From positions 110,412-174,411 of the forward strand of contig JAYKHR010000045.1 in the NCBI GenBank assembly GCA_035285125.1: DNA of 64,000 nucleotides. Reading direction: 5' to 3'. The position numbers were made by a program, and so were the translations under genes. Shown in pieces: positions 1 to 58,417 of this stretch. Origin of the DNA: Candidatus Sericytochromatia bacterium (GTDB taxonomy: Bacteria; Cyanobacteriota; Sericytochromatia; S15B-MN24; JAQBPE01). The first letter of the stretch is position 1. Every line of letters begins with the position of its first letter. The notes beneath the pieces were generated by a model. That model made no database searches and had not been told where the DNA came from. It saw only the letters and a program-made list of their open reading frames with translations.

Positions 1-213
1 CTTCAGGACTACGTCTCACGGGAGGTGGGGGTGCGGGTCTGGGTGAGCCCCTCGGGTCACGTGGCGCGCACCCAAGTCGTGCGCTCCAGCGGCCGCCGGG
101 ACGTCGACCAGGCCGCGCTGGAGGCAGTCGGGGCCTGGCGCTTCGCCCCCTGGCCGGCAGGCCCTGGGTTGGATCAGGTGGAAGACCTCGTGGTGCCGGT
201 CTCGCCGCGCTGA
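1..213 (+). CDS. Window-truncated 3' end of the TonB C-terminal-domain protein (mirror copy of 57656..57868)
   Basis: Frame-1 translation ...LQDYVSREVGVRVWVSPSGHVARTQVVRSSGRRDVDQAALEAVGAWRFAPWPAG... matches the C-terminus of the 57656..58417(-) product. It shows a TonB_C-like pattern (V.V.V....G.V......SSG...LD.AA..AV..W.F.P). TGA at 211-213. Confidence 0.7.
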   Translation, partial: LQDYVSREVGVRVWVSPSGHVARTQVVRSSGRRDVDQAALEAVGAWRFAPWPAGPGLDQVEDLVVPVSPR

Positions 214-224
214 CGCGTCCCGCG

Positions 225-275
225 CGGCCATTTATTTGACGTATCAAAATATTTCCAGGCAAAATAGTCTCCGCA
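225..275 (+). promoter_or_regulatory. AT-rich island upstream of the RND operon with a -35-like TTGACG and the inverted repeat TTGA-cgta-TCAA
   Basis: catttatttgacgtatcaaaatatttccaggcaaaatagtc is much more AT-rich than the surrounding DNA. TTGACG lies at 236-241 and TTGAcgtaTCAA at 236-247. I could not place a convincing -10 box. Confidence 0.25.
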
Positions 276-320
276 GGCCGGTCCACGCCGCCACCCGCGC
301 CCCGGAGGTCCTAGCTCCCA

Positions 321-1607
321 ATGCGTCGTAGCCTCGTCGTTGTCCCCCTGTTGCTCGGCATCGCGGCAGCCCCTCTCGCCTGCAAGGCCAAGCAAGAGGA
401 GAAGCCGGCCGAGGTCCCCGCCGTCCTGACGGTGGAGACCCGGCCTGTCGAGGCGCGGCAGCTGCCGCGCACGCTGGAGGTCACGGGCTCCGTCGCCGCG
501 TGGGAGCCGATGCCCGTCATCCCGGCGGCCAACGGCCTGCGGGTCGTGGCCGTGACCGCCGAGGAGGGCCAGATGGTGGGCCGCGGGCAGGTGCTCGCGG
601 TGCTCGACGACGCCACGCTGAAGGCGCAGCTCGACGCGGCCCGCGCCCGGGCCCGCATCGCGGAGGCCCAGCTGCAGAAGGCCCGCCACCCGATGCGCCT
701 GCAGGACCTCCGCAGCACGGAGGCCGCGCTCGTGCAGGCCGAGGCCGCGGCCCGGCAGGCGCAGGACGCCTACGTGCGCAGCCAGGCTTTGGCAGCCGAG
801 GGTGCCGTGACGCCGATGGAGCTCGTGGGCCGCCAGGCCGCGGCCGAGCAGGCCCGCGCGGCGGCCGACCAGGCCCGCGAGCGGCTCTCGCTCGCCCGCG
901 AGGGCTCGCGGCCGGAGGACCTGGCCATTGCCGAGGCCCAGGCCGACGAGGCCCGCGCCACCCTGGCCCAGATGGAGGCGCTGCACGCCCAGACGCGCGT
1001 CAAGGCGCCGGACGCGGGCAAGATCATCCGCAAGGACGTCCACCTCGGGGATGCCTCCGCCGTCGGCAAGGCGATGTTCCAGATGGTCCGGCTGGGCCGG
1101 CTGCAGGTGGAGGCGCTCGTGCCCGAGGCCGACCTCGGCCAGGTGAGGCCGGGCCTGCTGGCCCGCGTGGGCTCGGATGCCAGGCCCGACCTGCAGGCGA
1201 GCGGCGTCATCCGGGAGGTCAGCCCGGCGGTGGACCTCGCGAGCCGCCAGGCCACCATCCGCATCGACATCCCGGAGGCCTCGGGCCTGCGCGTGGGGAT
1301 GTTCGTGCGGGCCCAGCTGGCGCTCGGGCAGGTGTCCGCGCTGACCGTGCCCGCATCGGCCGTCGTCACGAAGGAGGCGGGCAGCGAGGTGTTCGTGCTG
1401 GATGGCAGCATCGCCCGCAGCCGCAGCGTCGTGCCTGGGGCCAGGGCCGGGGGCTGGGTGGCGATCGCCGAGGGCCTCAAGGCCGGCGAGCAGGTCATCA
1501 CGGCCGGCGTCGGCTTCCTGAAGGACGGTGACAAGGTCGACGTCGCGCCGCCGAAGGCCGCCTCGCCGGGCAAGCCACAGCCAGGGAAAGCCACCGCGGG
1601 CTCCTGA
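321..1607 (+). CDS. RND efflux periplasmic adaptor (membrane-fusion protein, HlyD/AcrA family), lipoprotein
   Basis: 428 aa. Signal peptide plus lipobox (LLLGIAAAPLAC). Long Ala/Gln/Arg-rich coiled-coil hairpin (about residues 95-215) flanked by beta-rich segments (VKAPDAGKIIRKDV, GMFVRAQLAL). GGAGG upstream of the ATG. Stop is 16 nt before the RND permease ATG. Confidence 0.9.
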   Translation: MRRSLVVVPLLLGIAAAPLACKAKQEEKPAEVPAVLTVETRPVEARQLPRTLEVTGSVAAWEPMPVIPAANGLRVVAVTAEEGQMVGRGQVLAVLDDATLKAQLDAARARARIAEAQLQKARHPMRLQDLRSTEAALVQAEAAARQAQDAYVRSQALAAEGAVTPMELVGRQAAAEQARAAADQARERLSLAREGSRPEDLAIAEAQADEARATLAQMEALHAQTRVKAPDAGKIIRKDVHLGDASAVGKAMFQMVRLGRLQVEALVPEADLGQVRPGLLARVGSDARPDLQASGVIREVSPAVDLASRQATIRIDIPEASGLRVGMFVRAQLALGQVSALTVPASAVVTKEAGSEVFVLDGSIARSRSVVPGARAGGWVAIAEGLKAGEQVITAGVGFLKDGDKVDVAPPKAASPGKPQPGKATAGS

Positions 1608-1622
1608 GGCGAGAGGCCCGCC

Positions 1623-4600
1623 ATGAACGTCTCTGCCTGGGCCATCAAGCGCCCCATCCCCGTCATCCTGCTCTTCTTGATGCTGACCCTGGTGGGGCTC
1701 TTCAGCTACCTCCGGCTCGGCGTCAACGACAACCCCGACGTCGACTTCCCCCTCATCGTGGTGGCTGTCTCGCAGGCCGGTGCCTCCCCGGCCGAGCTCG
1801 AGACCGAGGTCACGCGCAAGGTCGAGGACTCGCTCGTCGGCATCACGGGGCTCGACCACATCACCTCGACCGTCTCGGAGGGCGTGTCGACGACGGTGTG
1901 CGAGTTCAAGATTGGCACCCGCTCCGAGACGGCGCTGAACGACGTCCGGGACGCCGTCTCGAGGATCCGCCAGACGCTGCCCGGCGACATCACCGAGCCC
2001 TCCATCACGCACCCCAACTTCAGCGGCGAGCCCTTCGCCACCTTCACCGTCTCGTCGACCAGGCGCCCGATGGCCGAGCTGTCGCGCCTCATCGACGAGG
2101 ACATCACCCGCTCCTTGCTGGCCGTGCCGGGCGTCGCGCAGGTGCGCCGCTCCGGCGGGCTGACGCGGGAGGTGCGGATCGACCTCGAGCCTGCCCGGCT
2201 GCGGGCCCACAGGCTCACGGTGGAGGACGTGAACGGGCAGCTCAGGCAGGCCAACGTCAACCTGCCCGGCGGCCGCGCCGACGCCGGCGGGCGCGAGCAG
2301 TCGATCCGGACGCTCGGCTCCGCTGGCTCGGTGGAGGCGCTGGCCCGGCTGCCGATCGCCCTGCCGCAGGGCGGCACCGTCAGGCTCGACGCGCTCGGGC
2401 GGGTCGCGGACAGCCACGCGGAGGTGCGGCAGAAGGCGTTCCTGAACGGCCAGCCGTGCGTGGCGTTCTCCGTCGTGCGCTCGCAGGGCTCGCCCCTCGT
2501 GCAGACCGAGGAGGCCACCCGCCAGCAGGTCGAGGCGCTCGCGGCCACGCTGCCGCCGGACGTGAAGGTCGAGCTCATCCGCACGATGGCGGACTTCACG
2601 CGGGACTCCCACGAGGCCACGATGGACGCGCTGTACCTCGGCTCGGCGCTGGCCGTGGCCGTGATCTTCATCTTCCTGCGCAATGGCCAGGCGCTGTTCA
2701 TCTCGGCGCTCGCCATCCCGCTCTCGGTGATCGCGACCTTCGGCGTCATGAAGCTGCTCGGCTACACCCTCAACGGGATGACGACGCTGGCGCTCACGCT
2801 CGTGGTCGGCATCCTCGTGGACGATGCGATCGTCGACCTCGAGAACATCTACCGCCACATCGCGATGGGCAAGTCGCCCATGAGGGCTGCCCTGGAGGCC
2901 ACCGACGAGATCGGCCTCGCCATCGTCGCCACCACCATGACGATCGTCGCCGTGTTCATCCCGGTGGGCTTTATGGGCGGCATCCCCGGGATGTTCTTCC
3001 GCTCGTTCGGCGTCACGGTGGCCGTGGCCGTGCTGTTCTCGCTGCTGGTCGCCCGGACCCTCACGCCGATGATGGCCGCCCACCTGCTGCCGGAGCGGCT
3101 CGCCCACGCCGAGGACCGGGCGCCCTGGCGCGAGCCCTACATGCGCCTGCTCGAGTGGGCCCTCGCCCACCGCTGGAAGACGCTGACCGGGGCCCTGGCC
3201 GTGTTCGTCGGCTCGATGGCGCTGGTGCCCGTGATCCCCAAGGGCTTCATCGACCTCGGCGACATCGGCCAGGCCATGGTCCAGATCTCCCTCCCCGCAG
3301 GCTCCACGATCGAGGAGACGGAGCGCGTGGTGATGGAGACGAGCCAGCTGCTCGCGGCCCGGCCGGAGTCCCAGCTGGTCTTCGCGACCGTCGGCTCGGC
3401 CTCGAACTCGGCCGGGGGCTCCCTGGTGCAGTCGGCCAGCTCCGTCACGCGCGGCACCGTGAACGTGGTGCTCAAGCCCCGCGACCAGCGCACGCTGACG
3501 CTGGAGGCATTCCAGGACCAGCTGCGCCCGGAGCTTGCCCGCATCCCGGGCGCGCGCGTGGCCTTCGCCCAGTTCGGGGCGACGGGCTCCGCCAAGCCCG
3601 TGAACGTGCTGCTGCGCGGCTCGGACGGCCGGCTGCTCGAGCAGGTGGGGGCGCAGGTGCTCAAGGAGATGCGCACCCTGCCAGAGCTGCGGGACGTCAC
3701 GAGCACCGCCGCGGAGCTCCGTCCGGAGGTCGTGATCAGGCCCCACCTGACGCGCGCCGCCGAGCAGGGGGTCTCCGTCGCGGCCATCGGGCGGGTGGCC
3801 CGCCTCGCGACCCAGGGCGATGCCGAGTTCAACCTCGCCAAGTTCAACGCCGACTCGCGCCAGCTGAACATCCGCGTGCAGCTTGCCCCGTCGGCGCGGG
3901 CCGACCTGGCCGCCATCGGAGACCTCCTGGTGCCCGGCCGGGCTGGCCTCGTGCCCCTGCGGACGGTGGCCGACCTCCACTTCGGCACGGGCCCCGTGCA
4001 GATCGACCGCTACGACCGCGCCCGCCAGATCACCTTCACGGCCAACCTGACGGCCGGCGACATGGGCACGGCCCTCGCGAAGGTCGCCGAGCTGCCCAGC
4101 ATCAAGGCCCTGCCGGCCGGCATCACCCAGGGCACGGTGGGCGAGTCCAAGGTGATGATGGACATCTTCACCGAGACCCTGATCGCCCTCGGCACGGGCA
4201 TCATGGCCATCTACGCCGTGCTGGTGCTGCTCTTCGGGGGCTTCCTGCAGCCGCTGACCATCATGATGGCGCTGCCCCTGTCCATCGGCGGGGCGATGGC
4301 CGGCCTGCTGGTCTTCGGCAAGGAGCTCGGTCTCTACGCGCTCATCGGCGTGATGATGCTGATGGGCCTCGTCACCAAGAACTCGATCCTGCTCGTCGAG
4401 TACGCGCAGATGGCCCGCAACCAGGGCGCCACGCGCCGGGAGGCGCTGCTGCGCGCCGGGCGCGACCGCCTGCGGCCCATCTTGATGACGACGATCGCCA
4501 TGATCGCCGGCATGCTGCCCATCGCCCTGGAGCTGGGCACGGGCACCGAGATCCTCTCGCCGATGGCCGTCGCCGTGATCGGGGGGCTCGTCACCTCCAC

Positions 4601-4742
4601 GCTGTTCACGCTCGTCGTGATCCCGGCGGCCTTCACCCTCATCGACGACATCCAGCGCACGGCCTGGGGCTGGCTCGGCAAGCGGCTGCCGGCGCCGGAC
4701 GAGCCGGGCGACGGGGCCGCGCCGGCAGAGCCGACGGCCTAG
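1623..4742 (+). CDS. RND efflux permease, AcrB/HAE1 family
   Basis: 1039 aa. N-terminus [29 protein letters not shown]. Two large periplasmic loops between hydrophobic blocks. Conserved TM4-type motif [17 protein letters not shown] and TM10/11-type [14 protein letters not shown]. Confidence 0.95.
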
Positions 4743-5644
4743 GGCGCGGGCATCGGCAGGCCTGCCCGCCAGGCCCGGCGCAGCGCCACGGCCCGGTCGA
4801 CCTCGTTGGTGACGAGCCCATCCACGCCCCAGCGCAGCAGCCGCGCCATGGCCGCGGGCTCGTCCACCGTCCAGGCGAACAGCGGCAGCCCCTGCCCGTG
4901 GGCGGCCGCGACGACGGGGCCGCCGAGGGCCTCGTGCCAGCTCAGCACCAGGTCGGCGTGCGCGCCCAGCGCCCGGGTGGGCGGTGGCTCCAGCGGCCGC
5001 ACCAGCAGGCCGAGGGGGCGGTCGGGCGCCAGCCCCGCCAGCCGGCGCAGCGCGGCGCGGTGGAAGGAAATCAAGATGGCGCCGCCCGGCGGCGTGTGGC
5101 TGCCCAGCGCCTCGGCCACGCGCCGCACGAGCCCGGGGTGGGCCTCCTTGAGCTCGACCACCGCCACGGCCCGGCCCGCGAGCACCGCCAGCGCCTCCGC
5201 TACGGTGGGCACGGGCTCCCCGCGCCAGCGCGGGTGCTTCCAGCCACCCGCGTCGAGCCGCCGCAGCTCGGCGAGCGTCAGGCTGGCGACCTCCCCCCGG
5301 CCGCTGGTGGTGCGATCCACGGTGGGGTCGTGCATGAGCACGGCCTCCCCGTCGCGCGTGAGGCGCACGTCGAACTCGACGGCATCGGCCCCCGCCTCGA
5401 CGGCGGCCCGCAGGCTGGCGAGGGTGTTCTCGGGGGCCAGGGCCGAGTAGCCCCGGTGGGCGACGATCCAGGGCCGCGGGAGCGCGGGCAGGGGCCGCTT
5501 GTGGTAGGCCGCCGGGGCGGCCTGCCCCGACCAGGCGACGAGCTGCTCGCCGATGGCCCGCCCCCCCCGCGCCAGCGGGGCGCACGCCGTTGCCAGGGCC
5601 ACGTGAGCCACGAGCGCCGCCGCCAGCGCATGCCGCCTGCCCAT
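4739..5644 (-). CDS. Glycerophosphodiester phosphodiesterase (GDPD) family protein, secreted or lipoprotein
   Basis: Motifs WIVAHRGYSALAPENTL, AVEFDVRLTRDGEAVLMHD and LFAWTVDEP. Hydrophobic N-terminus MGRRHALAAALVAHVALATAC. The ORF runs up to 5674, but I prefer the ATG at 5644. Its stop overlaps the RND stop (CTAG 4739-4742). Confidence 0.85.
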   Translation of the reverse strand: MGRRHALAAALVAHVALATACAPLARGGRAIGEQLVAWSGQAAPAAYHKRPLPALPRPWIVAHRGYSALAPENTLASLRAAVEAGADAVEFDVRLTRDGEAVLMHDPTVDRTTSGRGEVASLTLAELRRLDAGGWKHPRWRGEPVPTVAEALAVLAGRAVAVVELKEAHPGLVRRVAEALGSHTPPGGAILISFHRAALRRLAGLAPDRPLGLLVRPLEPPPTRALGAHADLVLSWHEALGGPVVAAAHGQGLPLFAWTVDEPAAMARLLRWGVDGLVTNEVDRAVALRRAWRAGLPMPAP

Positions 5645-5678
5645 GGGCCGGCCCCCCTTTCCCGTGCCCCGCACGCCG

Positions 5679-7592
5679 TCAGAGCATGAAGCCGTAGAGC
5701 ACCTCGCCGTCGGGCGAGACCGTCAGCCCGCTGACGGGCCGCTCGGGCGTCCCCCGGTCCCACTCGACGTGGTGGGTCGCGCCCGTGTCGACGTCCACCG
5801 CCAGCACGCTCGTGCCGATGGCATACGCATACACGACCACCGGCTGCGTGGCGACCAGGGCGGCGGTGTCGTAGCTCGACACGTACAGCTCGCGCCGGCG
5901 CCAGGAGTACGCCAGCGTGCGGCCCATGAAGATGTTGTCGACCAGCAGGGTGTTCGTGCCGCCGTTGGCGGGGTTCACGGCCCAGATGGCCGTCCACCGC
6001 GTGTCCCCAGCCTTGGGGTGCTGGGCCAGCAGCCAGCCCGGCGGGCTCGAGTAGCCCGGCGTCACGTCGAAGGCGACGTCGTAGCACCGGCTGCTGGCCG
6101 GCAGCCGCTCGACGGGTGGGTGCCCGACGGCCACCGGCACCGTCGCTGGCGGCGTGCCCGTGACCTCGTAGAGCGAGGCGCCCTGGGCGGCGCGGTCGTT
6201 CGCGAGGTAGAGCCGCTCGCCGAAGCGCCGGAAGGCGTTGTAGACGTTGGATGCCGACTCGATGGGCATGTACGGCTGCCACGTGAACGCGCTGAGGCTG
6301 GCATCAACGGGCGTGCCGCGCAGGAGCTGCTCCGAGTCGCCGTGGGCCAGCACGGCGGCGCTGCCGGGCTCCCGGACGGCGCCACGAACGGCATTCTGCC
6401 AGGCCGTGGCCACCGGGTCGCGCAGCACCCCGGTCCCGGTGTCGTAGATGCGCAGCTCGGGGCCGTGGGCGAGCAGGATGTACCGGGAATCGTAGAACGA
6501 GCCGTACCAGCGCGTCACGCGGGCGGGGTTGGCCGGCCGCCCCATGTCGACGAGCCGGAAGCGGCTGCCCAGACCATCCCGCCGCCGCTTGCGCTCGGGC
6601 GTGGGCACCCAGCCAGCCGGCTCACCCGTCAGCCGCAGGCCCGGCGCCAGCCCGCTGAAGCCCAGCTCACCCGCCACCCCGATCGTCGGCCGGTCGAGCG
6701 GGAAGTCCTCCGCCGTGAAGGGGACGGTGCCGGACGCCACCGCGAGCGGCTCGAGCGGGAGCCGTGCAAGCTCGGCGCGCACGGCCCCGTCCAGCGCGGC
6801 AAAGGCGCCAAGCCGGCCGAGCGCCGCCCGCAGGGCGTCCGAGGAGGCCGCCAGCCCGTCCGGGCCGAGGCCCGTGACGAGGTCGTCGGCCCAGGCCGGC
6901 TGCCTGGCGAGGGCCTCCTCGAGCGCCGCCACGGCCCGCCTGGCGGCCTCGAAGGCCTGCGCCACGCCGGCCTCCCGGGCCGCCTGCGGCCGCAGCAACT
7001 GGAGCTTGAAGACGCCCTGGAAGGCGCGAGCGGCGGCCGTGCTCGCGGGGCTGAGCACGAGCCGCAGCGTCACGTCGCCGGCCTCGCGCAGGGCGTAGCC
7101 CCGGGCAGGCGCGGCCAGGAGCCGCCCCTGGCCGTCGAGCAGCGCGACGAAGGCCTGGGAACCCGTCTTCGCGACCAGCCGGACGACCTGGCCTGCCGCC
7201 AGCGGCGGCAGCGCAAGGTCGAAGGCCCCGGCCGCGTCCGTCCGCAGGGTGCCGCCGCCGGCCTCCTCCCAGGCCGTGAGGGGCACCGCCCGCCCCGTGG
7301 CGAGGTCCCAGGCCGTGAGGCTGGCGCCCTCCACGGGCTGGCCGTTAACGGCCACGCTGCCGAGCAGCCGGCGGCGGATGGCGGGCAGGGGCGTCGCAGG
7401 CGCCGGGGCGGGCGAGGCCGACGCCGGCGGTGGTGAGGCGCTGCCCGGGGCGGAGGGCGCCAGGGACGCGGGAGGCCCTCCCCCCGGAGCCGCGCCTGCC
7501 GTCGGCGCCGGGCTCAGCCCGGCCGGCGGGGCACAGCTCGGCAGCAGGAAGGCTCCGACCAGGAGGGACAGGGCGAGGCGCGAGGGGACCAC
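5679..7592 (-). CDS. Lipoprotein of unknown function: Pro/Ala-rich linker, carboxypeptidase-regulatory-like beta-sandwich, Ala-rich helical region and a beta-rich C-terminal domain
   Basis: 637 aa. GTG start preceded by GGAGAA. Signal plus lipobox-like LLPSCAPP. VAVNGQPVEGASLTAWDLATGRAV...TDAAGAFDL resembles CarboxypepD_reg-type sandwiches. The architecture parallels the three large paralogs at 22273..28934. Confidence 0.7.
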   Translation of the reverse strand: MVPSRLALSLLVGAFLLPSCAPPAGLSPAPTAGAAPGGGPPASLAPSAPGSASPPPASASPAPAPATPLPAIRRRLLGSVAVNGQPVEGASLTAWDLATGRAVPLTAWEEAGGGTLRTDAAGAFDLALPPLAAGQVVRLVAKTGSQAFVALLDGQGRLLAAPARGYALREAGDVTLRLVLSPASTAAARAFQGVFKLQLLRPQAAREAGVAQAFEAARRAVAALEEALARQPAWADDLVTGLGPDGLAASSDALRAALGRLGAFAALDGAVRAELARLPLEPLAVASGTVPFTAEDFPLDRPTIGVAGELGFSGLAPGLRLTGEPAGWVPTPERKRRRDGLGSRFRLVDMGRPANPARVTRWYGSFYDSRYILLAHGPELRIYDTGTGVLRDPVATAWQNAVRGAVREPGSAAVLAHGDSEQLLRGTPVDASLSAFTWQPYMPIESASNVYNAFRRFGERLYLANDRAAQGASLYEVTGTPPATVPVAVGHPPVERLPASSRCYDVAFDVTPGYSSPPGWLLAQHPKAGDTRWTAIWAVNPANGGTNTLLVDNIFMGRTLAYSWRRRELYVSSYDTAALVATQPVVVYAYAIGTSVLAVDVDTGATHHVEWDRGTPERPVSGLTVSPDGEVLYGFML

Positions 7593-7726
7593 GGCGGTTC
7601 TCCGGCAAGCCGTTCAGGGACCGACCCCGCTCGTACCCCGCCCAGGGCCGTGACATACGTCGCCGCCTCGATCCTTTCCCTGGCGCGCCTGAAAGCGCGC
7701 GTTGCCCGGCCGGACCCGGTCCCCGC

Positions 7727-9022
7727 TCAGGCCCGAGAGGCCGTAAAGACGACGGGTTCAGCCGGGCGTGCGGATACGGGCAAGGTGACGACGAAGTTGC
7801 TTCCCTCGCCTGGCGTGCTGGTCACCGTCAGCGTTCCCTGGTGCCCCCCCTCGATGATCGCACGGCTGAGCGTCAGGCCAAGTCCGAGGCCCCGGCTCCC
7901 CGACTGGCCGGGACAGGCCTGGAAGAACGGTTCGAAAACCCGAGCCAGGTGCTCGGGTTCGATGCCGACCCCCGTGTCGACCACCCGCAGCTCGGCGGCA
8001 CGTGGCATCCTGGCCAGCTGCACCTCCACGCGCCCCCCGGCCGGGGTCGCCTTGCGCGCGTTATCAAGGAGGTTTTGCAGCACCTGGTTCAGGCGGTCTG
8101 CATCGGCCTCGATGGAGACCCCTTCTGACGGCATGTCCGTGACCAGCGTGATGCCTGCCGCGTCGAACGCTGGCCGCTGCGCGTTCGTCACCTGGTGCAC
8201 CAGGTCGTTCAACTGGGTGGGGCCCTTCTCGCAGGAGAGTCCATGCGTTCGCAAGCGAGCCAGCTCGAACACGTCATTCACCAGGCGTTTCAGCACCAGG
8301 GACTGCTCCTCGGCCACTTGGAGCAGCCCCGCGGTCGGCTCGGCCAGAGCCTGACCCTGACCGCTCCTCAGAATGTGAAGCGCGGTGATCACGGAGGTAA
8401 GGGGCGTCCTGAGCTCGTGGCCGATGGTGGTGATGAACTGATACTTCGCGGCATCCAGCCGGGCCAGCTCCTCGTTGTGGAGGCGCAACTGCGCGTTCGT
8501 GGTTTCGATCAGGAAGACCAGCATGCCAACCCCAACCATCAGGTTCAGCACCATCGAAACCGAGTACCCGACCCAGGCCCAGGGCGTGTGCGCCAGGACA
8601 GGATAGGAGAAAAACCAGAGGCCGGAGATGACAACGGGCAGGCCCAGGAATCTGGAGCCGGCGGCCTGGTGGGTTCGCAGGATGCTCCATCCCAGCCACA
8701 CGTGGAGCCAAGAATAGGCAAGCATGGAGGGCAGGACCACCACATTGAAAGGCTGCCCCCACGCAGCAAGGCCGGCGCCAGGAAGGCCAGTAGCCACCAA
8801 GAAAAGGGGGAGGCGACGCGCGGTCATCGGGGCGTCACGGCGCAAGACCCGAGAGGCCTGAACGAGGCACCAGCAAATCGCGTTGACCAGGACAACTTCC
8901 AGACCCCACAACCATCCGGGACGTCCAAAGAAGGCTGCAAACATCTCGGACAGCAGGAGGCAAAGCCCCCCCCGTAGGCGCACAGCCACAGTCTGAAGAA
9001 CGGGGTCTGGTGGTGCCTCCAA
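7727..9022 (-). CDS. Sensor histidine kinase (polytopic N-terminus, HisKA + HATPase_c); no adjacent response regulator. The N-terminus probably extends to GTG 9096 through a frameshift at 8966-8973
   Basis: H-box FITTIGHELRTPLTSV. N-box LNQVLQNLLDNARKAT. G1 VVDTGVGIEPEHLARVFEPFFQ. G2 GSRGLGLGLTLSRAII. Several hydrophobic helices lie upstream of the HisKA domain. See the finding on the C8 tract. Confidence 0.9.
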   Translation of the reverse strand: MEAPPDPVLQTVAVRLRGGLCLLLSEMFAAFFGRPGWLWGLEVVLVNAICWCLVQASRVLRRDAPMTARRLPLFLVATGLPGAGLAAWGQPFNVVVLPSMLAYSWLHVWLGWSILRTHQAAGSRFLGLPVVISGLWFFSYPVLAHTPWAWVGYSVSMVLNLMVGVGMLVFLIETTNAQLRLHNEELARLDAAKYQFITTIGHELRTPLTSVITALHILRSGQGQALAEPTAGLLQVAEEQSLVLKRLVNDVFELARLRTHGLSCEKGPTQLNDLVHQVTNAQRPAFDAAGITLVTDMPSEGVSIEADADRLNQVLQNLLDNARKATPAGGRVEVQLARMPRAAELRVVDTGVGIEPEHLARVFEPFFQACPGQSGSRGLGLGLTLSRAIIEGGHQGTLTVTSTPGEGSNFVVTLPVSARPAEPVVFTASRA

Positions 9023-9197
9023 ATCCAGGCTGACATAACCAAGATCGTCGCCACGCCAAGGACGTTGCTGATACTGGCCTGCTCAACTTGTGTCACAATG
9101 GCTCCGTGGAGGTTTCGAAGTCGTGCGCACCCGTGTGTCGCCAATTTTCCACGGTCAACAATAGCGGACCCTGCAGGAAAGGTTCAACCATCCTCCG

Positions 9198-11655: not shown

Positions 11656-11659
11656 GCGC

Positions 11660-13654: not shown

Positions 13655-13673
13655 CGCGCTCCGCGCCCTCCAA

Positions 13674-44195: not shown

Positions 44196-44214
44196 TTGGA
44201 GGGCGCGGAGCGCG

Positions 44215-46209: not shown

Positions 46210-46213
46210 GCGC

Positions 46214-48671: not shown

Positions 48672-48846
48672 CGGAGGATGGTTGAACCTTTCCTGCAGGG
48701 TCCGCTATTGTTGACCGTGGAAAATTGGCGACACACGGGTGCGCACGACTTCGAAACCTCCACGGAGCCATTGTGACACAAGTTGAGCAGGCCAGTATCA
48801 GCAACGTCCTTGGCGTGGCGACGATCTTGGTTATGTCAGCCTGGAT

Positions 48847-50142: not shown

Positions 50143-50276
50143 GCGGGGACCGGGTCCGGCCGGGCAACGCGCGCTTTCAGGCGCGCCAGGGAAAGGATCG
50201 AGGCGGCGACGTATGTCACGGCCCTGGGCGGGGTACGAGCGGGGTCGGTCCCTGAACGGCTTGCCGGAGAACCGCC

Positions 50277-52190
50277 GTGGTCCCCTCGCGCCTCGCCCTG
50301 TCCCTCCTGGTCGGAGCCTTCCTGCTGCCGAGCTGTGCCCCGCCGGCCGGGCTGAGCCCGGCGCCGACGGCAGGCGCGGCTCCGGGGGGAGGGCCTCCCG
50401 CGTCCCTGGCGCCCTCCGCCCCGGGCAGCGCCTCACCACCGCCGGCGTCGGCCTCGCCCGCCCCGGCGCCTGCGACGCCCCTGCCCGCCATCCGCCGCCG
50501 GCTGCTCGGCAGCGTGGCCGTTAACGGCCAGCCCGTGGAGGGCGCCAGCCTCACGGCCTGGGACCTCGCCACGGGGCGGGCGGTGCCCCTCACGGCCTGG
50601 GAGGAGGCCGGCGGCGGCACCCTGCGGACGGACGCGGCCGGGGCCTTCGACCTTGCGCTGCCGCCGCTGGCGGCAGGCCAGGTCGTCCGGCTGGTCGCGA
50701 AGACGGGTTCCCAGGCCTTCGTCGCGCTGCTCGACGGCCAGGGGCGGCTCCTGGCCGCGCCTGCCCGGGGCTACGCCCTGCGCGAGGCCGGCGACGTGAC
50801 GCTGCGGCTCGTGCTCAGCCCCGCGAGCACGGCCGCCGCTCGCGCCTTCCAGGGCGTCTTCAAGCTCCAGTTGCTGCGGCCGCAGGCGGCCCGGGAGGCC
50901 GGCGTGGCGCAGGCCTTCGAGGCCGCCAGGCGGGCCGTGGCGGCGCTCGAGGAGGCCCTCGCCAGGCAGCCGGCCTGGGCCGACGACCTCGTCACGGGCC
51001 TCGGCCCGGACGGGCTGGCGGCCTCCTCGGACGCCCTGCGGGCGGCGCTCGGCCGGCTTGGCGCCTTTGCCGCGCTGGACGGGGCCGTGCGCGCCGAGCT
51101 TGCACGGCTCCCGCTCGAGCCGCTCGCGGTGGCGTCCGGCACCGTCCCCTTCACGGCGGAGGACTTCCCGCTCGACCGGCCGACGATCGGGGTGGCGGGT
51201 GAGCTGGGCTTCAGCGGGCTGGCGCCGGGCCTGCGGCTGACGGGTGAGCCGGCTGGCTGGGTGCCCACGCCCGAGCGCAAGCGGCGGCGGGATGGTCTGG
51301 GCAGCCGCTTCCGGCTCGTCGACATGGGGCGGCCGGCCAACCCCGCCCGCGTGACGCGCTGGTACGGCTCGTTCTACGATTCCCGGTACATCCTGCTCGC
51401 CCACGGCCCCGAGCTGCGCATCTACGACACCGGGACCGGGGTGCTGCGCGACCCGGTGGCCACGGCCTGGCAGAATGCCGTTCGTGGCGCCGTCCGGGAG
51501 CCCGGCAGCGCCGCCGTGCTGGCCCACGGCGACTCGGAGCAGCTCCTGCGCGGCACGCCCGTTGATGCCAGCCTCAGCGCGTTCACGTGGCAGCCGTACA
51601 TGCCCATCGAGTCGGCATCCAACGTCTACAACGCCTTCCGGCGCTTCGGCGAGCGGCTCTACCTCGCGAACGACCGCGCCGCCCAGGGCGCCTCGCTCTA
51701 CGAGGTCACGGGCACGCCGCCAGCGACGGTGCCGGTGGCCGTCGGGCACCCACCCGTCGAGCGGCTGCCGGCCAGCAGCCGGTGCTACGACGTCGCCTTC
51801 GACGTGACGCCGGGCTACTCGAGCCCGCCGGGCTGGCTGCTGGCCCAGCACCCCAAGGCTGGGGACACGCGGTGGACGGCCATCTGGGCCGTGAACCCCG
51901 CCAACGGCGGCACGAACACCCTGCTGGTCGACAACATCTTCATGGGCCGCACGCTGGCGTACTCCTGGCGCCGGCGCGAGCTGTACGTGTCGAGCTACGA
52001 CACCGCCGCCCTGGTCGCCACGCAGCCGGTGGTCGTGTATGCGTATGCCATCGGCACGAGCGTGCTGGCGGTGGACGTCGACACGGGCGCGACCCACCAC
52101 GTCGAGTGGGACCGGGGGACGCCCGAGCGGCCCGTCAGCGGGCTGACGGTCTCGCCCGACGGCGAGGTGCTCTACGGCTTCATGCTCTGA
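50277..52190 (+). CDS. 637-aa lipoprotein of unknown function (mirror copy)
   Basis: Exact twin of 5679..7592. Confidence 0.7.
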   Translation: MVPSRLALSLLVGAFLLPSCAPPAGLSPAPTAGAAPGGGPPASLAPSAPGSASPPPASASPAPAPATPLPAIRRRLLGSVAVNGQPVEGASLTAWDLATGRAVPLTAWEEAGGGTLRTDAAGAFDLALPPLAAGQVVRLVAKTGSQAFVALLDGQGRLLAAPARGYALREAGDVTLRLVLSPASTAAARAFQGVFKLQLLRPQAAREAGVAQAFEAARRAVAALEEALARQPAWADDLVTGLGPDGLAASSDALRAALGRLGAFAALDGAVRAELARLPLEPLAVASGTVPFTAEDFPLDRPTIGVAGELGFSGLAPGLRLTGEPAGWVPTPERKRRRDGLGSRFRLVDMGRPANPARVTRWYGSFYDSRYILLAHGPELRIYDTGTGVLRDPVATAWQNAVRGAVREPGSAAVLAHGDSEQLLRGTPVDASLSAFTWQPYMPIESASNVYNAFRRFGERLYLANDRAAQGASLYEVTGTPPATVPVAVGHPPVERLPASSRCYDVAFDVTPGYSSPPGWLLAQHPKAGDTRWTAIWAVNPANGGTNTLLVDNIFMGRTLAYSWRRRELYVSSYDTAALVATQPVVVYAYAIGTSVLAVDVDTGATHHVEWDRGTPERPVSGLTVSPDGEVLYGFML

Positions 52191-52224
52191 CGGCGTGCGG
52201 GGCACGGGAAAGGGGGGCCGGCCC

Positions 52225-53130
52225 ATGGGCAGGCGGCATGCGCTGGCGGCGGCGCTCGTGGCTCACGTGGCCCTGGCAACGGCGTGCGCCCCGCTGGCGC
52301 GGGGGGGGCGGGCCATCGGCGAGCAGCTCGTCGCCTGGTCGGGGCAGGCCGCCCCGGCGGCCTACCACAAGCGGCCCCTGCCCGCGCTCCCGCGGCCCTG
52401 GATCGTCGCCCACCGGGGCTACTCGGCCCTGGCCCCCGAGAACACCCTCGCCAGCCTGCGGGCCGCCGTCGAGGCGGGGGCCGATGCCGTCGAGTTCGAC
52501 GTGCGCCTCACGCGCGACGGGGAGGCCGTGCTCATGCACGACCCCACCGTGGATCGCACCACCAGCGGCCGGGGGGAGGTCGCCAGCCTGACGCTCGCCG
52601 AGCTGCGGCGGCTCGACGCGGGTGGCTGGAAGCACCCGCGCTGGCGCGGGGAGCCCGTGCCCACCGTAGCGGAGGCGCTGGCGGTGCTCGCGGGCCGGGC
52701 CGTGGCGGTGGTCGAGCTCAAGGAGGCCCACCCCGGGCTCGTGCGGCGCGTGGCCGAGGCGCTGGGCAGCCACACGCCGCCGGGCGGCGCCATCTTGATT
52801 TCCTTCCACCGCGCCGCGCTGCGCCGGCTGGCGGGGCTGGCGCCCGACCGCCCCCTCGGCCTGCTGGTGCGGCCGCTGGAGCCACCGCCCACCCGGGCGC
52901 TGGGCGCGCACGCCGACCTGGTGCTGAGCTGGCACGAGGCCCTCGGCGGCCCCGTCGTCGCGGCCGCCCACGGGCAGGGGCTGCCGCTGTTCGCCTGGAC
53001 GGTGGACGAGCCCGCGGCCATGGCGCGGCTGCTGCGCTGGGGCGTGGATGGGCTCGTCACCAACGAGGTCGACCGGGCCGTGGCGCTGCGCCGGGCCTGG
53101 CGGGCAGGCCTGCCGATGCCCGCGCCCTAG
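52225..53130 (+). CDS. GDPD family phosphodiesterase (mirror copy)
   Basis: Exact twin of 4739..5644. Confidence 0.85.
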   Translation: MGRRHALAAALVAHVALATACAPLARGGRAIGEQLVAWSGQAAPAAYHKRPLPALPRPWIVAHRGYSALAPENTLASLRAAVEAGADAVEFDVRLTRDGEAVLMHDPTVDRTTSGRGEVASLTLAELRRLDAGGWKHPRWRGEPVPTVAEALAVLAGRAVAVVELKEAHPGLVRRVAEALGSHTPPGGAILISFHRAALRRLAGLAPDRPLGLLVRPLEPPPTRALGAHADLVLSWHEALGGPVVAAAHGQGLPLFAWTVDEPAAMARLLRWGVDGLVTNEVDRAVALRRAWRAGLPMPAP

Positions 53131-56100
53131 GCCGTCGGCTCTGCCGGCGCGGCCCCGTCGCCCGGCTCGTCCGGCGCCGGCAGCCGCTTGCCGAGCCAGC
53201 CCCAGGCCGTGCGCTGGATGTCGTCGATGAGGGTGAAGGCCGCCGGGATCACGACGAGCGTGAACAGCGTGGAGGTGACGAGCCCCCCGATCACGGCGAC
53301 GGCCATCGGCGAGAGGATCTCGGTGCCCGTGCCCAGCTCCAGGGCGATGGGCAGCATGCCGGCGATCATGGCGATCGTCGTCATCAAGATGGGCCGCAGG
53401 CGGTCGCGCCCGGCGCGCAGCAGCGCCTCCCGGCGCGTGGCGCCCTGGTTGCGGGCCATCTGCGCGTACTCGACGAGCAGGATCGAGTTCTTGGTGACGA
53501 GGCCCATCAGCATCATCACGCCGATGAGCGCGTAGAGACCGAGCTCCTTGCCGAAGACCAGCAGGCCGGCCATCGCCCCGCCGATGGACAGGGGCAGCGC
53601 CATCATGATGGTCAGCGGCTGCAGGAAGCCCCCGAAGAGCAGCACCAGCACGGCGTAGATGGCCATGATGCCCGTGCCGAGGGCGATCAGGGTCTCGGTG
53701 AAGATGTCCATCATCACCTTGGACTCGCCCACCGTGCCCTGGGTGATGCCGGCCGGCAGGGCCTTGATGCTGGGCAGCTCGGCGACCTTCGCGAGGGCCG
53801 TGCCCATGTCGCCGGCCGTCAGGTTGGCCGTGAAGGTGATCTGGCGGGCGCGGTCGTAGCGGTCGATCTGCACGGGGCCCGTGCCGAAGTGGAGGTCGGC
53901 CACCGTCCGCAGGGGCACGAGGCCAGCCCGGCCGGGCACCAGGAGGTCTCCGATGGCGGCCAGGTCGGCCCGCGCCGACGGGGCAAGCTGCACGCGGATG
54001 TTCAGCTGGCGCGAGTCGGCGTTGAACTTGGCGAGGTTGAACTCGGCATCGCCCTGGGTCGCGAGGCGGGCCACCCGCCCGATGGCCGCGACGGAGACCC
54101 CCTGCTCGGCGGCGCGCGTCAGGTGGGGCCTGATCACGACCTCCGGACGGAGCTCCGCGGCGGTGCTCGTGACGTCCCGCAGCTCTGGCAGGGTGCGCAT
54201 CTCCTTGAGCACCTGCGCCCCCACCTGCTCGAGCAGCCGGCCGTCCGAGCCGCGCAGCAGCACGTTCACGGGCTTGGCGGAGCCCGTCGCCCCGAACTGG
54301 GCGAAGGCCACGCGCGCGCCCGGGATGCGGGCAAGCTCCGGGCGCAGCTGGTCCTGGAATGCCTCCAGCGTCAGCGTGCGCTGGTCGCGGGGCTTGAGCA
54401 CCACGTTCACGGTGCCGCGCGTGACGGAGCTGGCCGACTGCACCAGGGAGCCCCCGGCCGAGTTCGAGGCCGAGCCGACGGTCGCGAAGACCAGCTGGGA
54501 CTCCGGCCGGGCCGCGAGCAGCTGGCTCGTCTCCATCACCACGCGCTCCGTCTCCTCGATCGTGGAGCCTGCGGGGAGGGAGATCTGGACCATGGCCTGG
54601 CCGATGTCGCCGAGGTCGATGAAGCCCTTGGGGATCACGGGCACCAGCGCCATCGAGCCGACGAACACGGCCAGGGCCCCGGTCAGCGTCTTCCAGCGGT
54701 GGGCGAGGGCCCACTCGAGCAGGCGCATGTAGGGCTCGCGCCAGGGCGCCCGGTCCTCGGCGTGGGCGAGCCGCTCCGGCAGCAGGTGGGCGGCCATCAT
54801 CGGCGTGAGGGTCCGGGCGACCAGCAGCGAGAACAGCACGGCCACGGCCACCGTGACGCCGAACGAGCGGAAGAACATCCCGGGGATGCCGCCCATAAAG
54901 CCCACCGGGATGAACACGGCGACGATCGTCATGGTGGTGGCGACGATGGCGAGGCCGATCTCGTCGGTGGCCTCCAGGGCAGCCCTCATGGGCGACTTGC
55001 CCATCGCGATGTGGCGGTAGATGTTCTCGAGGTCGACGATCGCATCGTCCACGAGGATGCCGACCACGAGCGTGAGCGCCAGCGTCGTCATCCCGTTGAG
55101 GGTGTAGCCGAGCAGCTTCATGACGCCGAAGGTCGCGATCACCGAGAGCGGGATGGCGAGCGCCGAGATGAACAGCGCCTGGCCATTGCGCAGGAAGATG
55201 AAGATCACGGCCACGGCCAGCGCCGAGCCGAGGTACAGCGCGTCCATCGTGGCCTCGTGGGAGTCCCGCGTGAAGTCCGCCATCGTGCGGATGAGCTCGA
55301 CCTTCACGTCCGGCGGCAGCGTGGCCGCGAGCGCCTCGACCTGCTGGCGGGTGGCCTCCTCGGTCTGCACGAGGGGCGAGCCCTGCGAGCGCACGACGGA
55401 GAACGCCACGCACGGCTGGCCGTTCAGGAACGCCTTCTGCCGCACCTCCGCGTGGCTGTCCGCGACCCGCCCGAGCGCGTCGAGCCTGACGGTGCCGCCC
55501 TGCGGCAGGGCGATCGGCAGCCGGGCCAGCGCCTCCACCGAGCCAGCGGAGCCGAGCGTCCGGATCGACTGCTCGCGCCCGCCGGCGTCGGCGCGGCCGC
55601 CGGGCAGGTTGACGTTGGCCTGCCTGAGCTGCCCGTTCACGTCCTCCACCGTGAGCCTGTGGGCCCGCAGCCGGGCAGGCTCGAGGTCGATCCGCACCTC
55701 CCGCGTCAGCCCGCCGGAGCGGCGCACCTGCGCGACGCCCGGCACGGCCAGCAAGGAGCGGGTGATGTCCTCGTCGATGAGGCGCGACAGCTCGGCCATC
55801 GGGCGCCTGGTCGACGAGACGGTGAAGGTGGCGAAGGGCTCGCCGCTGAAGTTGGGGTGCGTGATGGAGGGCTCGGTGATGTCGCCGGGCAGCGTCTGGC
55901 GGATCCTCGAGACGGCGTCCCGGACGTCGTTCAGCGCCGTCTCGGAGCGGGTGCCAATCTTGAACTCGCACACCGTCGTCGACACGCCCTCCGAGACGGT
56001 CGAGGTGATGTGGTCGAGCCCCGTGATGCCGACGAGCGAGTCCTCGACCTTGCGCGTGACCTCGGTCTCGAGCTCGGCCGGGGAGGCACCGGCCTGCGAG

Positions 56101-56246
56101 ACAGCCACCACGATGAGGGGGAAGTCGACGTCGGGGTTGTCGTTGACGCCGAGCCGGAGGTAGCTGAAGAGCCCCACCAGGGTCAGCATCAAGAAGAGCA
56201 GGATGACGGGGATGGGGCGCTTGATGGCCCAGGCAGAGACGTTCAT
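53127..56246 (-). CDS. RND efflux permease, AcrB/HAE1 family (mirror copy)
   Basis: Exact twin of 1623..4742. Confidence 0.95.
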
Positions 56247-56261
56247 GGCGGGCCTCTCGCC

Positions 56262-57548
56262 TCAGGAGCCCGCGGTGGCTTTCCCTGGCTGTGGCTTGCC
56301 CGGCGAGGCGGCCTTCGGCGGCGCGACGTCGACCTTGTCACCGTCCTTCAGGAAGCCGACGCCGGCCGTGATGACCTGCTCGCCGGCCTTGAGGCCCTCG
56401 GCGATCGCCACCCAGCCCCCGGCCCTGGCCCCAGGCACGACGCTGCGGCTGCGGGCGATGCTGCCATCCAGCACGAACACCTCGCTGCCCGCCTCCTTCG
56501 TGACGACGGCCGATGCGGGCACGGTCAGCGCGGACACCTGCCCGAGCGCCAGCTGGGCCCGCACGAACATCCCCACGCGCAGGCCCGAGGCCTCCGGGAT
56601 GTCGATGCGGATGGTGGCCTGGCGGCTCGCGAGGTCCACCGCCGGGCTGACCTCCCGGATGACGCCGCTCGCCTGCAGGTCGGGCCTGGCATCCGAGCCC
56701 ACGCGGGCCAGCAGGCCCGGCCTCACCTGGCCGAGGTCGGCCTCGGGCACGAGCGCCTCCACCTGCAGCCGGCCCAGCCGGACCATCTGGAACATCGCCT
56801 TGCCGACGGCGGAGGCATCCCCGAGGTGGACGTCCTTGCGGATGATCTTGCCCGCGTCCGGCGCCTTGACGCGCGTCTGGGCGTGCAGCGCCTCCATCTG
56901 GGCCAGGGTGGCGCGGGCCTCGTCGGCCTGGGCCTCGGCAATGGCCAGGTCCTCCGGCCGCGAGCCCTCGCGGGCGAGCGAGAGCCGCTCGCGGGCCTGG
57001 TCGGCCGCCGCGCGGGCCTGCTCGGCCGCGGCCTGGCGGCCCACGAGCTCCATCGGCGTCACGGCACCCTCGGCTGCCAAAGCCTGGCTGCGCACGTAGG
57101 CGTCCTGCGCCTGCCGGGCCGCGGCCTCGGCCTGCACGAGCGCGGCCTCCGTGCTGCGGAGGTCCTGCAGGCGCATCGGGTGGCGGGCCTTCTGCAGCTG
57201 GGCCTCCGCGATGCGGGCCCGGGCGCGGGCCGCGTCGAGCTGCGCCTTCAGCGTGGCGTCGTCGAGCACCGCGAGCACCTGCCCGCGGCCCACCATCTGG
57301 CCCTCCTCGGCGGTCACGGCCACGACCCGCAGGCCGTTGGCCGCCGGGATGACGGGCATCGGCTCCCACGCGGCGACGGAGCCCGTGACCTCCAGCGTGC
57401 GCGGCAGCTGCCGCGCCTCGACAGGCCGGGTCTCCACCGTCAGGACGGCGGGGACCTCGGCCGGCTTCTCCTCTTGCTTGGCCTTGCAGGCGAGAGGGGC
57501 TGCCGCGATGCCGAGCAACAGGGGGACAACGACGAGGCTACGACGCAT
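56262..57548 (-). CDS. RND efflux periplasmic adaptor (mirror copy)
   Basis: Exact twin of 321..1607. Confidence 0.9.
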   Translation of the reverse strand: MRRSLVVVPLLLGIAAAPLACKAKQEEKPAEVPAVLTVETRPVEARQLPRTLEVTGSVAAWEPMPVIPAANGLRVVAVTAEEGQMVGRGQVLAVLDDATLKAQLDAARARARIAEAQLQKARHPMRLQDLRSTEAALVQAEAAARQAQDAYVRSQALAAEGAVTPMELVGRQAAAEQARAAADQARERLSLAREGSRPEDLAIAEAQADEARATLAQMEALHAQTRVKAPDAGKIIRKDVHLGDASAVGKAMFQMVRLGRLQVEALVPEADLGQVRPGLLARVGSDARPDLQASGVIREVSPAVDLASRQATIRIDIPEASGLRVGMFVRAQLALGQVSALTVPASAVVTKEAGSEVFVLDGSIARSRSVVPGARAGGWVAIAEGLKAGEQVITAGVGFLKDGDKVDVAPPKAASPGKPQPGKATAGS

Positions 57549-57655
57549 TGGGAGCTAGGACCTCCGGGGCGCGGGTGGCGGCGTGGACCGGCCTGCGGAG
57601 ACTATTTTGCCTGGAAATATTTTGATACGTCAAATAAATGGCCGCGCGGGACGCG

Positions 57656-58417
57656 TCAGCGCGGCGAGACCGGCACCACGAGGTCTTCCACCTGATCCAA
57701 CCCAGGGCCTGCCGGCCAGGGGGCGAAGCGCCAGGCCCCGACTGCCTCCAGCGCGGCCTGGTCGACGTCCCGGCGGCCGCTGGAGCGCACGACTTGGGTG
57801 CGCGCCACGTGACCCGAGGGGCTCACCCAGACCCGCACCCCCACCTCCCGTGAGACGTAGTCCTGAAGGGCCTCCAGGGGCACGGTGGGGTCGACCCGCC
57901 GCAGCAGCGGTCGCGCGACCAGCCCGTGTTTCAGCCAATCGACGGTGGGTGGGGTGCCCTCCCAGCGGGCCCGGCCGTCGCCGAACCGGGCCTGATCCTT
58001 GGGGACCCACTGCACCACGCGCTCCGCCCGCAGGTGGATCTCCCCGGACGCGTCGATGCGTCGGATGACGCCCTCCCACGTCAGGCGGTCGCCCACGGCC
58101 ATGCCATGGCCCTCGGCCAGGTAGGCCGTCCACGTCGGGCCGGGGCTCTCGGGCGCGGCGGCCACGTGGACCGCCACCAGGCCGGCCGCCGTGACATCCG
58201 GGGCCGTTCCCACGACCCAGCCGCTGCGGCGCATCCGCTGACCGGCGTGGGCGCGGTTCAGCCGGGCGAGCTCAGCCTGGAAGGGGCCGTCGGGAAGCCT
58301 GGCGGCTGCGCGGGCCACCTTCGCCCGGAGGGCGTCCTCCCGCGGCAGCGACTCGGCCCCCGCCGGGAGGGCGGGGGCCAGCAGCAGCGCGCAGAGGGCG
58401 ATCAGCAGGCGGTGCAC
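57656..58417 (-). CDS. Secreted protein with a C-terminal TonB_C-like domain (full length; crosses the end of the duplicated region)
   Basis: I prefer the GTG at 58417: VHRLLIALCALLLAPALPAGA is a signal peptide, and this start lies 8 nt after the SulP stop. The longer ORF to 58684 overlaps SulP with junk-like sequence. The C-terminal ~80 aa are TonB_C-like (see 1..213). Confidence 0.7.
   Translation of the reverse strand: MHRLLIALCALLLAPALPAGAESLPREDALRAKVARAAARLPDGPFQAELARLNRAHAGQRMRRSGWVVGTAPDVTAAGLVAVHVAAAPESPGPTWTAYLAEGHGMAVGDRLTWEGVIRRIDASGEIHLRAERVVQWVPKDQARFGDGRARWEGTPPTVDWLKHGLVARPLLRRVDPTVPLEALQDYVSREVGVRVWVSPSGHVARTQVVRSSGRRDVDQAALEAVGAWRFAPWPAGPGLDQVEDLVVPVSPR

Follow-up and report, generated by a model that had tools for sequence, protein, structure and literature searches.

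The DNA analysed here (the window, 64,000 nucleotides) belongs to a 278,690-bp NCBI contig from the metagenome-assembled genome of an uncultured Candidatus Sericytochromatia bacterium (72% GC), and most of it reads as a single giant palindrome. Does this palindrome exist in the chromosome of the organism, or only in the assembled record?

Extent and exactness of the palindrome

A sequence-only reading of the window had described a perfect palindrome devoid of spacer. Both parts of this description hold: when all pairs x and 57869-x were compared by script (x = 1 to 28934), we found 0 mismatches over 28,934 mirrored pairs, no loop and no N base, the axis lying at 28934|28935. Mirror symmetry over 57.9 kb cannot be chance. 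Positions 28935-57868 are matched exactly by the reverse complement of the left arm (1..28934), which the start of the window cuts short. The right arm (28935..57868) runs on in natural gene order into a segment without mirror partner within the window (57869..64000), which encodes a sulfate permease, a carbonic anhydrase, an ankyrin-repeat protein and a signal peptidase.

It had also been claimed that the right arm enters non-duplicated sequence at this point. This is not knowable from the window, since 57868 merely mirrors window position 1 and the palindrome may extend further. A contig from a relative (JAYKHL010000034.1) aligns colinearly with window positions 62540 to 53161, straight across 57868|57869, so no event took place there. 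57868|57869 is only the mirror of the window start and apparently no true boundary of the palindrome. The length of the source contig, 278,690 bp, is an even number, which is compatible with a palindrome covering the whole contig and says little.

The axis interrupts a gene of a lipoprotein array

The genes of the window are ordinary chromosomal housekeeping genes (RND efflux, M16 peptidases, carbonic anhydrase, signal peptidase), and their order is syntenic with contigs of relatives. A HlyD-like protein encoded near the window start has matches in relatives only, the best at 86% amino acid identity, in the genome and metagenome contig collections. Along the arm, an efflux pump is followed by a pair of M16 peptidases and then by three tandem NHL-repeat lipoproteins, designated 1, 2 and 3. 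Paralogue 1 (22123..25203, plus strand; P0029) is 1026 aa long as called, its lipoprotein start being probably at 22273, and symmetry places its mirror copy at 32666-35746 on the minus strand. Paralogue 2 (25260..28112, plus strand, 950 aa; P0028), mirrored on the minus strand at 29757-32609, has NHL and Vgb_lyase matches in Pfam and is on record as an exact product of the 278,690-bp contig; it shares 63% amino acid identity with P0001, a protein of a relative that is orthologous to the third copy.

The axis lies inside this third copy. Members of the array are roughly 950-1030 aa long, and 260 of about 950 codons of the third gene are present, in both mirror copies: the genuine 5' part (28155..28934, plus strand) ends with ...NRELD at the axis, and its mirror occupies 28935-29714 on the minus strand. 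A GC3 frame analysis of 28155..28934 is among the evidence that these 260 codons are genuine, as is P0001, which is 80% identical across all 260 aa. P0001 goes on with ...VVRGF... past the point of the axis, up to aa 431, where its contig ends. A second orthologue (L019) is colinear across 6.95 kb at about 80% nucleotide identity and extends at least 1.9 kb beyond the axis point. The continuation ...RELD|VVRGF... is found in the two orthologues and in both paralogues of the window, with hundreds of further codons, and at the nucleotide level the natural continuation reads GCCGAGAACGACCGCCTCAACCGCGAGCTCGACGTCGT(G/C)CGCGGCTTC. The axis thus coincides with no biological landmark and cuts a sequence that is uninterrupted in two orthologues and two paralogues, as is expected of an artefact.

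The sequence-only reading had noted for each open reading frame an identical twin on the opposite strand. The symmetry is confirmed, and the pair that crosses the axis (645 aa each) has to be reinterpreted as chimeric: in the frame at 28155..30092 (plus strand), as in its twin at 27777-29714 (minus strand), the reading passes after 260 real codons into the antisense of that gene. The exact 645-aa chimeric product is not found in the protein collection, where neighbouring genes of the source contig do occur.

Contigs from four related assemblies terminate within the same lipoprotein array. A family profile search returned 56 members, and paralogues 1 and 2 were the only array proteins that it recovered from the source contig; neither an intact third copy nor a 3' remainder from this organism was among the 56, which is weak evidence, the word index being lossy and missing true matches. 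The same holds for the C-terminal 191 aa of an orthologue used as query, which gave no match and missed its own orthologue as well. In the independent Logan assembly of SRR19514065, the arm is matched at 100% identity across 6,795 bp; among the genes looked up in Logan, no complete one came from the stretch that separates 19.2 kb from the axis.

The junction lies on a short palindrome and within the longest exact repeat

The junction core, CGAC|GTCG (28931..28938), is an 8-bp natural palindrome centred on the axis, so that 4 bp of microhomology are available on each side. The columns CGCGAGCTCGACGTCG are invariant among the window gene, the two orthologues and the two paralogues, and the window departs from all four homologues only after 28938, that is, 4 nt beyond the axis. 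In the unique 35 kb, roughly 250 sites are palindromic over 8 bp or more; 0.7% of positions have palindromic arms of 4 bp or longer.

The axis is also contained, near the end, in a 29-nt exact repeat (28910..28938, plus strand) common to the third gene and paralogue 1 (22995-23023). This repeat measures at least 29 nt; no exact repeat in the non-redundant 35 kb is longer, and repeats of 29 nt or more make up 0.17% of that sequence. The axis therefore falls at an ambiguous position for assembly, combining the longest exact repeat with an array in which the contigs of four relatives end, and this is the context in which an artefact is expected. A real U-turn inversion or tandem inversion duplication (TID), too, is expected to have its junction at a naturally occurring, short inverted repeat that offers microhomology.

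How the palindrome may have arisen

The sequence-only reading had favoured a fold-back chimera carried into the assembly. The truncation of the gene, the position of the axis in the longest inter-paralogue repeat and its location in an array where the contigs of four relatives end support this proposal, and we consider it highly probable that the palindrome belongs to the assembled record and not to the chromosome of the organism. The exact symmetry, the gene truncation, the microhomology, the repeat context and the contig breaks in relatives are direct observations, from which we infer that a chimeric read existed and that the assembler proceeded as follows. The true contig would run from the efflux pump through the M16 peptidase pair to NHL lipoproteins 1, 2 and 3, and the unique path would be lost about 780 bp into the third copy, where the sequence exactly matches copy 1. 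One or more of the molecules or reads sequenced would carry a fold-back junction here, created by a strand switch of a DNA polymerase at CGAC|GTCG, either in vitro, during end repair or during a strand-displacing step such as multiple displacement amplification (MDA), or in one single cell, by a replication U-turn that came to a dead end. With the correct continuation ambiguous or poorly covered in the paralogue array, the assembler may have followed the self-mirror link and returned along the contig on the opposite strand, which makes the arms identical by construction and leaves no spacer. Zero mismatches and zero spacer are then expected, because both arms would be one consensus read twice; it also follows from their identity that, on the artefact reading, the sequence does not tell which arm is the spurious one.

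A physically chimeric molecule or read has to be postulated in this scheme, because an 8-bp palindrome is far too short for a self-mirror edge in a de Bruijn graph. A hairpin made purely by the graph was considered and rejected: such an edge needs about k-1 palindromic bases, and only 8 bp are native here. As for the sources of fold-back put forward earlier, a polymerase strand or template switch is favoured by the 4+4 bp of microhomology, whereas a missed hairpin adapter, like blunt ligation, would be expected to fall at a random position.

Comparable objects are known. In single-cell assemblies of cyanobacteria, palindromic contigs were noted and discarded as probable artefacts (PMC12755884), and SPAdes and MEGAHIT output palindromic unitigs whole (PMC9528984). 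Exact mirror halves, zero spacer and an axis devoid of biological landmark are shared by these contigs and the window, although the reported cases come from MDA single-cell genomes and the window from a contig of a metagenome-assembled genome. Among chimeras formed during MDA, 85% are inversions and 76.8% were primed at complementarities of at least 2 bp (Lasken and Stockwell 2007, PMC1855051), and the inverted junction, primed by a few complementary bases near the break, resembles the one described here (PMC1855051). MDA chimeras differ in that they usually carry an intervening deletion (form A'C), which leaves a short asymmetric spacer, whereas the switch point in the window is exactly symmetric, because the microhomology is itself palindromic.

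The same final geometry could be reached by an artefact that involves no polymerase switch: a SMRTbell or hairpin adapter that was missed, template and complement read through in one nanopore read, or the end of the contig joined by a scaffolder to its own reverse complement through the 8-bp self-overlap. The last of these draws some support from the junction: a contig ending at 28938 (...CGACGTCG) has its last 8 bases in perfect overlap with the start of its own reverse complement, and a gap closer working on short overlaps could yield exactly such a junction. Such a join would still need wrongly oriented read pairs, however, and where an adapter was missed, or a strand read through, at some random fragment end, symmetric microhomology of at least 4 bp is expected only about 0.7% of the time. 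We regard this group of explanations as very improbable.

Microhomology at a short natural palindrome is equally the signature of a real fold-back or U-turn in vivo. A very recent inverted duplication, formed by a U-turn or by the first snap-back step of a TID at CGAC|GTCG, would have been fixed in the sampled population before its symmetric junction was remodelled. Stable TIDs, as studied in Salmonella, have junctions remodelled to asymmetry; the symmetric junction of the window, which bears no trace of such remodelling, differs from them. U-turn inversions and TIDs are real rearrangements in vivo with a raised copy number; a TID has in addition a second junction, and a third copy in direct orientation that restores the interrupted gene. 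Microhomology at a short inverted repeat is required by the models of U-turn, faulty template switch and TID alike (PMC4417113), and the junction lies exactly on such a repeat, with its 4+4 bp, as in the U-turn inversions and TIDs described (PMC4417113). Also in favour of this scenario are the inverted chromosome duplications centred on palindromes that are documented in E. coli (PMC3315005). However, SbcCD of E. coli attacks perfect palindromes that are long (PMC3315005, PMC4787754), and two undiverged arms of 28.9 kb or more, joined without spacer, would offer hairpin or cruciform cleavage a strong substrate. The axis gene is truncated in both copies, and the failure to recover an intact third copy from the source contig points, weakly given the lossy index, in the same direction. 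Finally, the axis falls on the longest repeat shared between paralogues, within an array at which the assemblies of four relatives break as well; roughly 250 palindromes of 8 bp or more are available in the unique 35 kb, and a biological event would have had no reason to choose this one. We therefore consider a real duplication improbable.

Replicon ends would account for the geometry only. Reading through a covalently closed hairpin telomere (as made by Borrelia ResT, phage N15 TelN or Agrobacterium TelA) gives a perfect palindrome without spacer, and so might a head-to-head replication intermediate of a linear replicon or, as a variant, joined terminal inverted repeats. The resolution site of a hairpin telomere, however, is a dedicated non-coding sequence, palindromic over tens of bases and lying beside a protelomerase system, whereas the natural palindrome of the window spans 8 bp, mid-way in a conserved lipoprotein gene whose orthologues and paralogues go on for hundreds of codons. 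The hairpin-telomere alternative raised by the sequence-only reading is refuted because the axis lies inside an open reading frame. The remaining evidence is in line with this: Pfam matches to protelomerase, integrase, terminal-protein or replication families, and thus to genes for the maintenance of linear replicons, were absent from the 20 main ORFs scanned, which cover the arm and its flank in the window; megablast of the 12 kb adjoining the axis gave no match in the plasmid and phage collections; and the continuation of the gene in relatives, between flanks of syntenic, chromosomal content, is not that of a physical chromosome or plasmid end. A linear chromosome of Streptomyces type with joined terminal repeats, considered on account of the 72% GC, was rejected, since gene content and relatives are those of Sericytochromatia and the axis is in an ORF. 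The probability that we leave to replicon ends as a whole is close to nil.

Consequences

If the palindrome is, as we favour, an assembly product, its biological significance is most likely nil, and its significance for data quality is real. A spurious mirror copy would then occupy no less than 29 kb of a public contig, perhaps much more, inflating genome size, duplicating about 20 genes, creating the two chimeric 645-aa ORFs and hiding the true continuation of the tandem lipoprotein array. Estimates of completeness, contamination and copy number would be distorted, as would analyses of synteny. Should the duplication be real after all, an uncultured lineage of Sericytochromatia would carry 29 kb or more in a freshly formed inverted duplication, still perfectly symmetric, that arose by a replication U-turn at the 8-bp palindrome inside the lipoprotein array; this would be a rare natural case of an unremodelled giant palindrome in a bacterium. 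Caught before processing of the SbcCD type or remodelling of its junction, it would offer a natural snapshot of the symmetric precursor in TID models.

Exact symmetry and gene content

The sequence-only reading had described a perfect palindrome without a spacer, and this holds at every base: in a scripted comparison of positions x and 57869-x, none of the 28934 mirrored pairs (x = 1 to 28934) was mismatched. The axis lies at 28934/28935, and the two arms of 28,934 bp (1-28934 and 28935-57868) are joined without spacer and contain no N bases. The GC content, 72%, is mirrored across the axis, as expected. Since 57868 is the mirror of position 1, the length of the arms reflects only where the window starts. 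The palindrome may continue to the left of it, and the flank that the sequence-only reading called non-duplicated (57869-64000) may have a mirror copy there. Contig JAYKHL010000034.1 of a relative aligns colinearly with the window from 62540 to 53161, across 57868/57869, without any break at that coordinate.

Pfam scans of 20 ORFs with GC3 support returned ordinary chromosomal genes. The mirrored arm carries an HlyD/AcrB RND efflux pair, a GDPD phosphodiesterase, a histidine kinase, a DUF4332 protein, beta-propeller proteins, an M16 peptidase pair and large NHL-repeat proteins; the unmirrored flank (57869-64000) carries a sulfate permease, a carbonic anhydrase, an ankyrin-repeat protein and signal peptidase I. 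These 20 ORFs included no transposase, integrase, protelomerase or replication gene, and 12 kb of sequence next to the axis had no match among plasmid or phage records. The closest relatives are Candidatus Sericytochromatia metagenome-assembled genomes (MAGs). By exact sequence, the proteins of the window are recorded from a single NCBI contig of 278,690 bp, the source contig. An independent Logan contig (L018, SRR19514065_148617; 6,795 bp) is 100% identical to window positions 12448-19242, so that the same strain is present in run SRR19514065.

Two regions of this gene content deserve mention on their own. The 8.5 kb stretch at 4705-13204 (mirror 44665-53164), in which GC falls to 0.645 at 8-10 kb, encodes the GDPD phosphodiesterase, a 644-aa protein without Pfam match, the histidine kinase and a 934-aa aminotransferase-domain protein. 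In its place, JAYKHL010000034.1 has about 1.5 kb with a beta-lactamase-like gene, and the stretch, which is flanked by blocks that are otherwise syntenic, may represent an indel or a small genomic island. In the unmirrored flank, 61631-63238 (+) encodes a secreted-looking protein of 535 aa with several ankyrin repeats, next to signal peptidase I. Ankyrin repeats are uncommon in bacteria.

The axis interrupts a gene of a tandem array

GC3 frame analysis and homology agree that the axis falls within a protein-coding gene. The M16 pair is followed by three tandem, same-strand genes for lipoproteins of roughly 950-1030 aa that carry NHL/beta-propeller repeats. These are paralogue 1 (22123/22273-25203), paralogue 2 (25260-28112) and a third gene that starts at 28155 and meets the axis after 260 residues. 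Across all of these first 260 residues, the axis gene is 80% identical to its orthologue from a related MAG (P0001), and its reading frame reaches the axis directly after ...DRLNRELD. P0001 and both paralogues go on with ...VVRGFAKGAF... for hundreds more residues. A JGI contig with four tandem copies (L019, Ga0310140_0002481) is colinear with window positions 22099-28938 at about 80% nucleotide identity, and its axis-gene orthologue runs at least 1.9 kb past the equivalent of the axis. As the homologues continue beyond this point, both mirrored copies of the axis gene are truncated. Each of the two 645-aa ORFs across the axis consists of 260 real codons followed by the antisense of the same gene; the protein collection has no entry for this chimera, whereas it does contain the products of its neighbours. 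A profile search found no intact third array copy on the source contig, which is weak evidence given a lossy word index: the word-indexed search missed the window's own paralogues and gave no match for 191 aa taken unchanged from a database protein, so that its negative results weigh little.

The array spans 22123-28934 (mirror 28935-35746) in the window, 3962-15581 in L019 and 10001-11293 in L001. Its proteins are NHL/Vgb-lyase-like beta-propellers, each with a lipobox (...LGC) and a glycine-rich linker of the (GGALISDQ)n type. Its position directly downstream of the M16 peptidase pair is conserved in several Sericytochromatia, with three copies in the window and four or more in the JGI contig.

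This array is also where assemblies break. The longest exact repeat of the non-redundant sequence is a 29-nt match between 28910-28938, that is, 25 nt before the axis and 4 nt after it, and 22995-23023 in paralogue 1. Of the non-redundant sequence, 0.17% lies in repeats of 29 nt or more and 0.56% in repeats of 25 nt or more. Contigs of four independent assemblies of relatives terminate inside the same array: JAYKHL010000034.1 stops after 431 codons of the orthologue, VKS61_03485 is partial (333 aa), VKP62_14200 is partial and adjoins a complete paralogue, and the JGI contig ends in the fourth copy. The fold-back thus sits exactly where a contig end is expected. None of the gene products looked up in Logan between 19.2 kb and the axis is on record, and near the array the SRR19514065 assembly seems to be broken up or to have low coverage.

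Sequence at the junction

In an alignment of the window with two orthologues and two paralogues, CGCGAGCTCGACGTCG is invariant in 5/5 sequences, and the window leaves the other four only past 28938, 4 nt beyond the axis. The native sequence reads ...GAGCTCGAC up to the axis and GTCGT(G/C)CGC... after it, so that a native 8-bp palindrome, CGAC/GTCG, is centred exactly on the axis, which indicates a fold-back with 4 bp of microhomology per side. The palindromic junction is CTCAACCGCGAGCTCGACGTCGAGCTCGCGGTTGAG, the natural continuation GCCGAGAACGACCGCCTCAACCGCGAGCTCGACGTCGT(G/C)CGCGGCTTC, and the prefix GCCGAGAACGACC, specific to the third copy, tells the latter apart from paralogue 1.

Palindromic arms of at least 4 bp occur at only 0.7% of positions (35 kb of non-redundant sequence). 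Such microhomology is rarely expected at a random fragment end, whether from a missed hairpin adapter, nanopore template-complement read-through or blunt ligation. The observed junction is what would result if a 3' end jumped to the complementary strand and a polymerase then extended it. The pattern matches chimeras of multiple displacement amplification (MDA), 85% of which are inversions, with priming mostly at short complementary stretches (PMC1855051). It equally matches replication U-turns at short inverted repeats in vivo (PMC4417113).

Origin of the palindrome

We consider a polymerase strand switch, followed by an assembler taking the self-mirror link, to be the most economical account, and hold it with considerable confidence. 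The true contig would end in the third paralogue; in one or a few molecules or reads, a strand-switch junction would have formed at the native 8-bp palindrome; and, the correct continuation being ambiguous, the assembler would have followed the self-mirror link and emitted the contig and then its own reverse complement. The absolute identity of the arms is then explained, as they are one consensus written twice, and so are the missing spacer, the truncation of both gene copies and the location of the axis. We infer a chimeric molecule or read because a palindrome of 8 bp could not by itself give rise to a self-mirror edge. The absence of mismatches, the gene truncated at the axis and the position on an assembly-breaking repeat thus bear out a fold-back chimera as the leading explanation. 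Among the sources earlier proposed for it, strand or template switching is favoured by the 4 bp of microhomology per side, while the missed hairpin adapter loses ground. An artefact formed without polymerase switching, by such an adapter or by a scaffolder closing the 8-bp self-overlap, appears improbable: palindromic arms of this size are too scarce to be expected from a missed adapter, and a scaffolder join would still need read pairs in the wrong orientation.

A real and very recent inverted duplication, by a U-turn or as the first step of a tandem inversion duplication (TID), would leave the same microhomology signature, and the symmetric TID precursor shares one tested feature with the window, a junction at a short inverted repeat. 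We nevertheless regard it as unlikely: the arms, of at least 29 kb, show zero divergence and zero spacer, although long palindromes should be subject to processing in these organisms (the structures that they form are cut by SbcCD in E. coli; PMC3315005, PMC4787754), the axis coincides with an assembly-breaking repeat and, as weaker evidence, the source contig yielded no intact third copy. The closed hairpin end or head-to-head replication intermediate of a linear replicon, also raised by the sequence-only reading, and joined terminal inverted repeats as well, are very hard to reconcile with an axis inside a conserved ORF, a native palindrome of only 8 bp, scanned ORFs devoid of linear-replicon genes, a chromosomal gene content syntenic with relatives, and the lack of any plasmid or phage match to the 12 kb next to the axis. 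Assignment to the hairpin telomeres was rejected, neither of the two defining features tested being present.

Self-mirrored contigs have precedents: SPAdes and MEGAHIT write out palindromic unitigs in full (PMC9528984), and exactly mirrored contigs in cyanobacterial single-cell assemblies were removed as likely artefacts (PMC12755884). The object in the window most probably belongs to a known class of assembly errors, the palindromic fold-back contigs, and the public contig should be trimmed at 28934/28935. The palindrome is most probably not a real genomic feature, and the tandem array of NHL lipoproteins that follows the M16 pair is still incompletely assembled in this genome.
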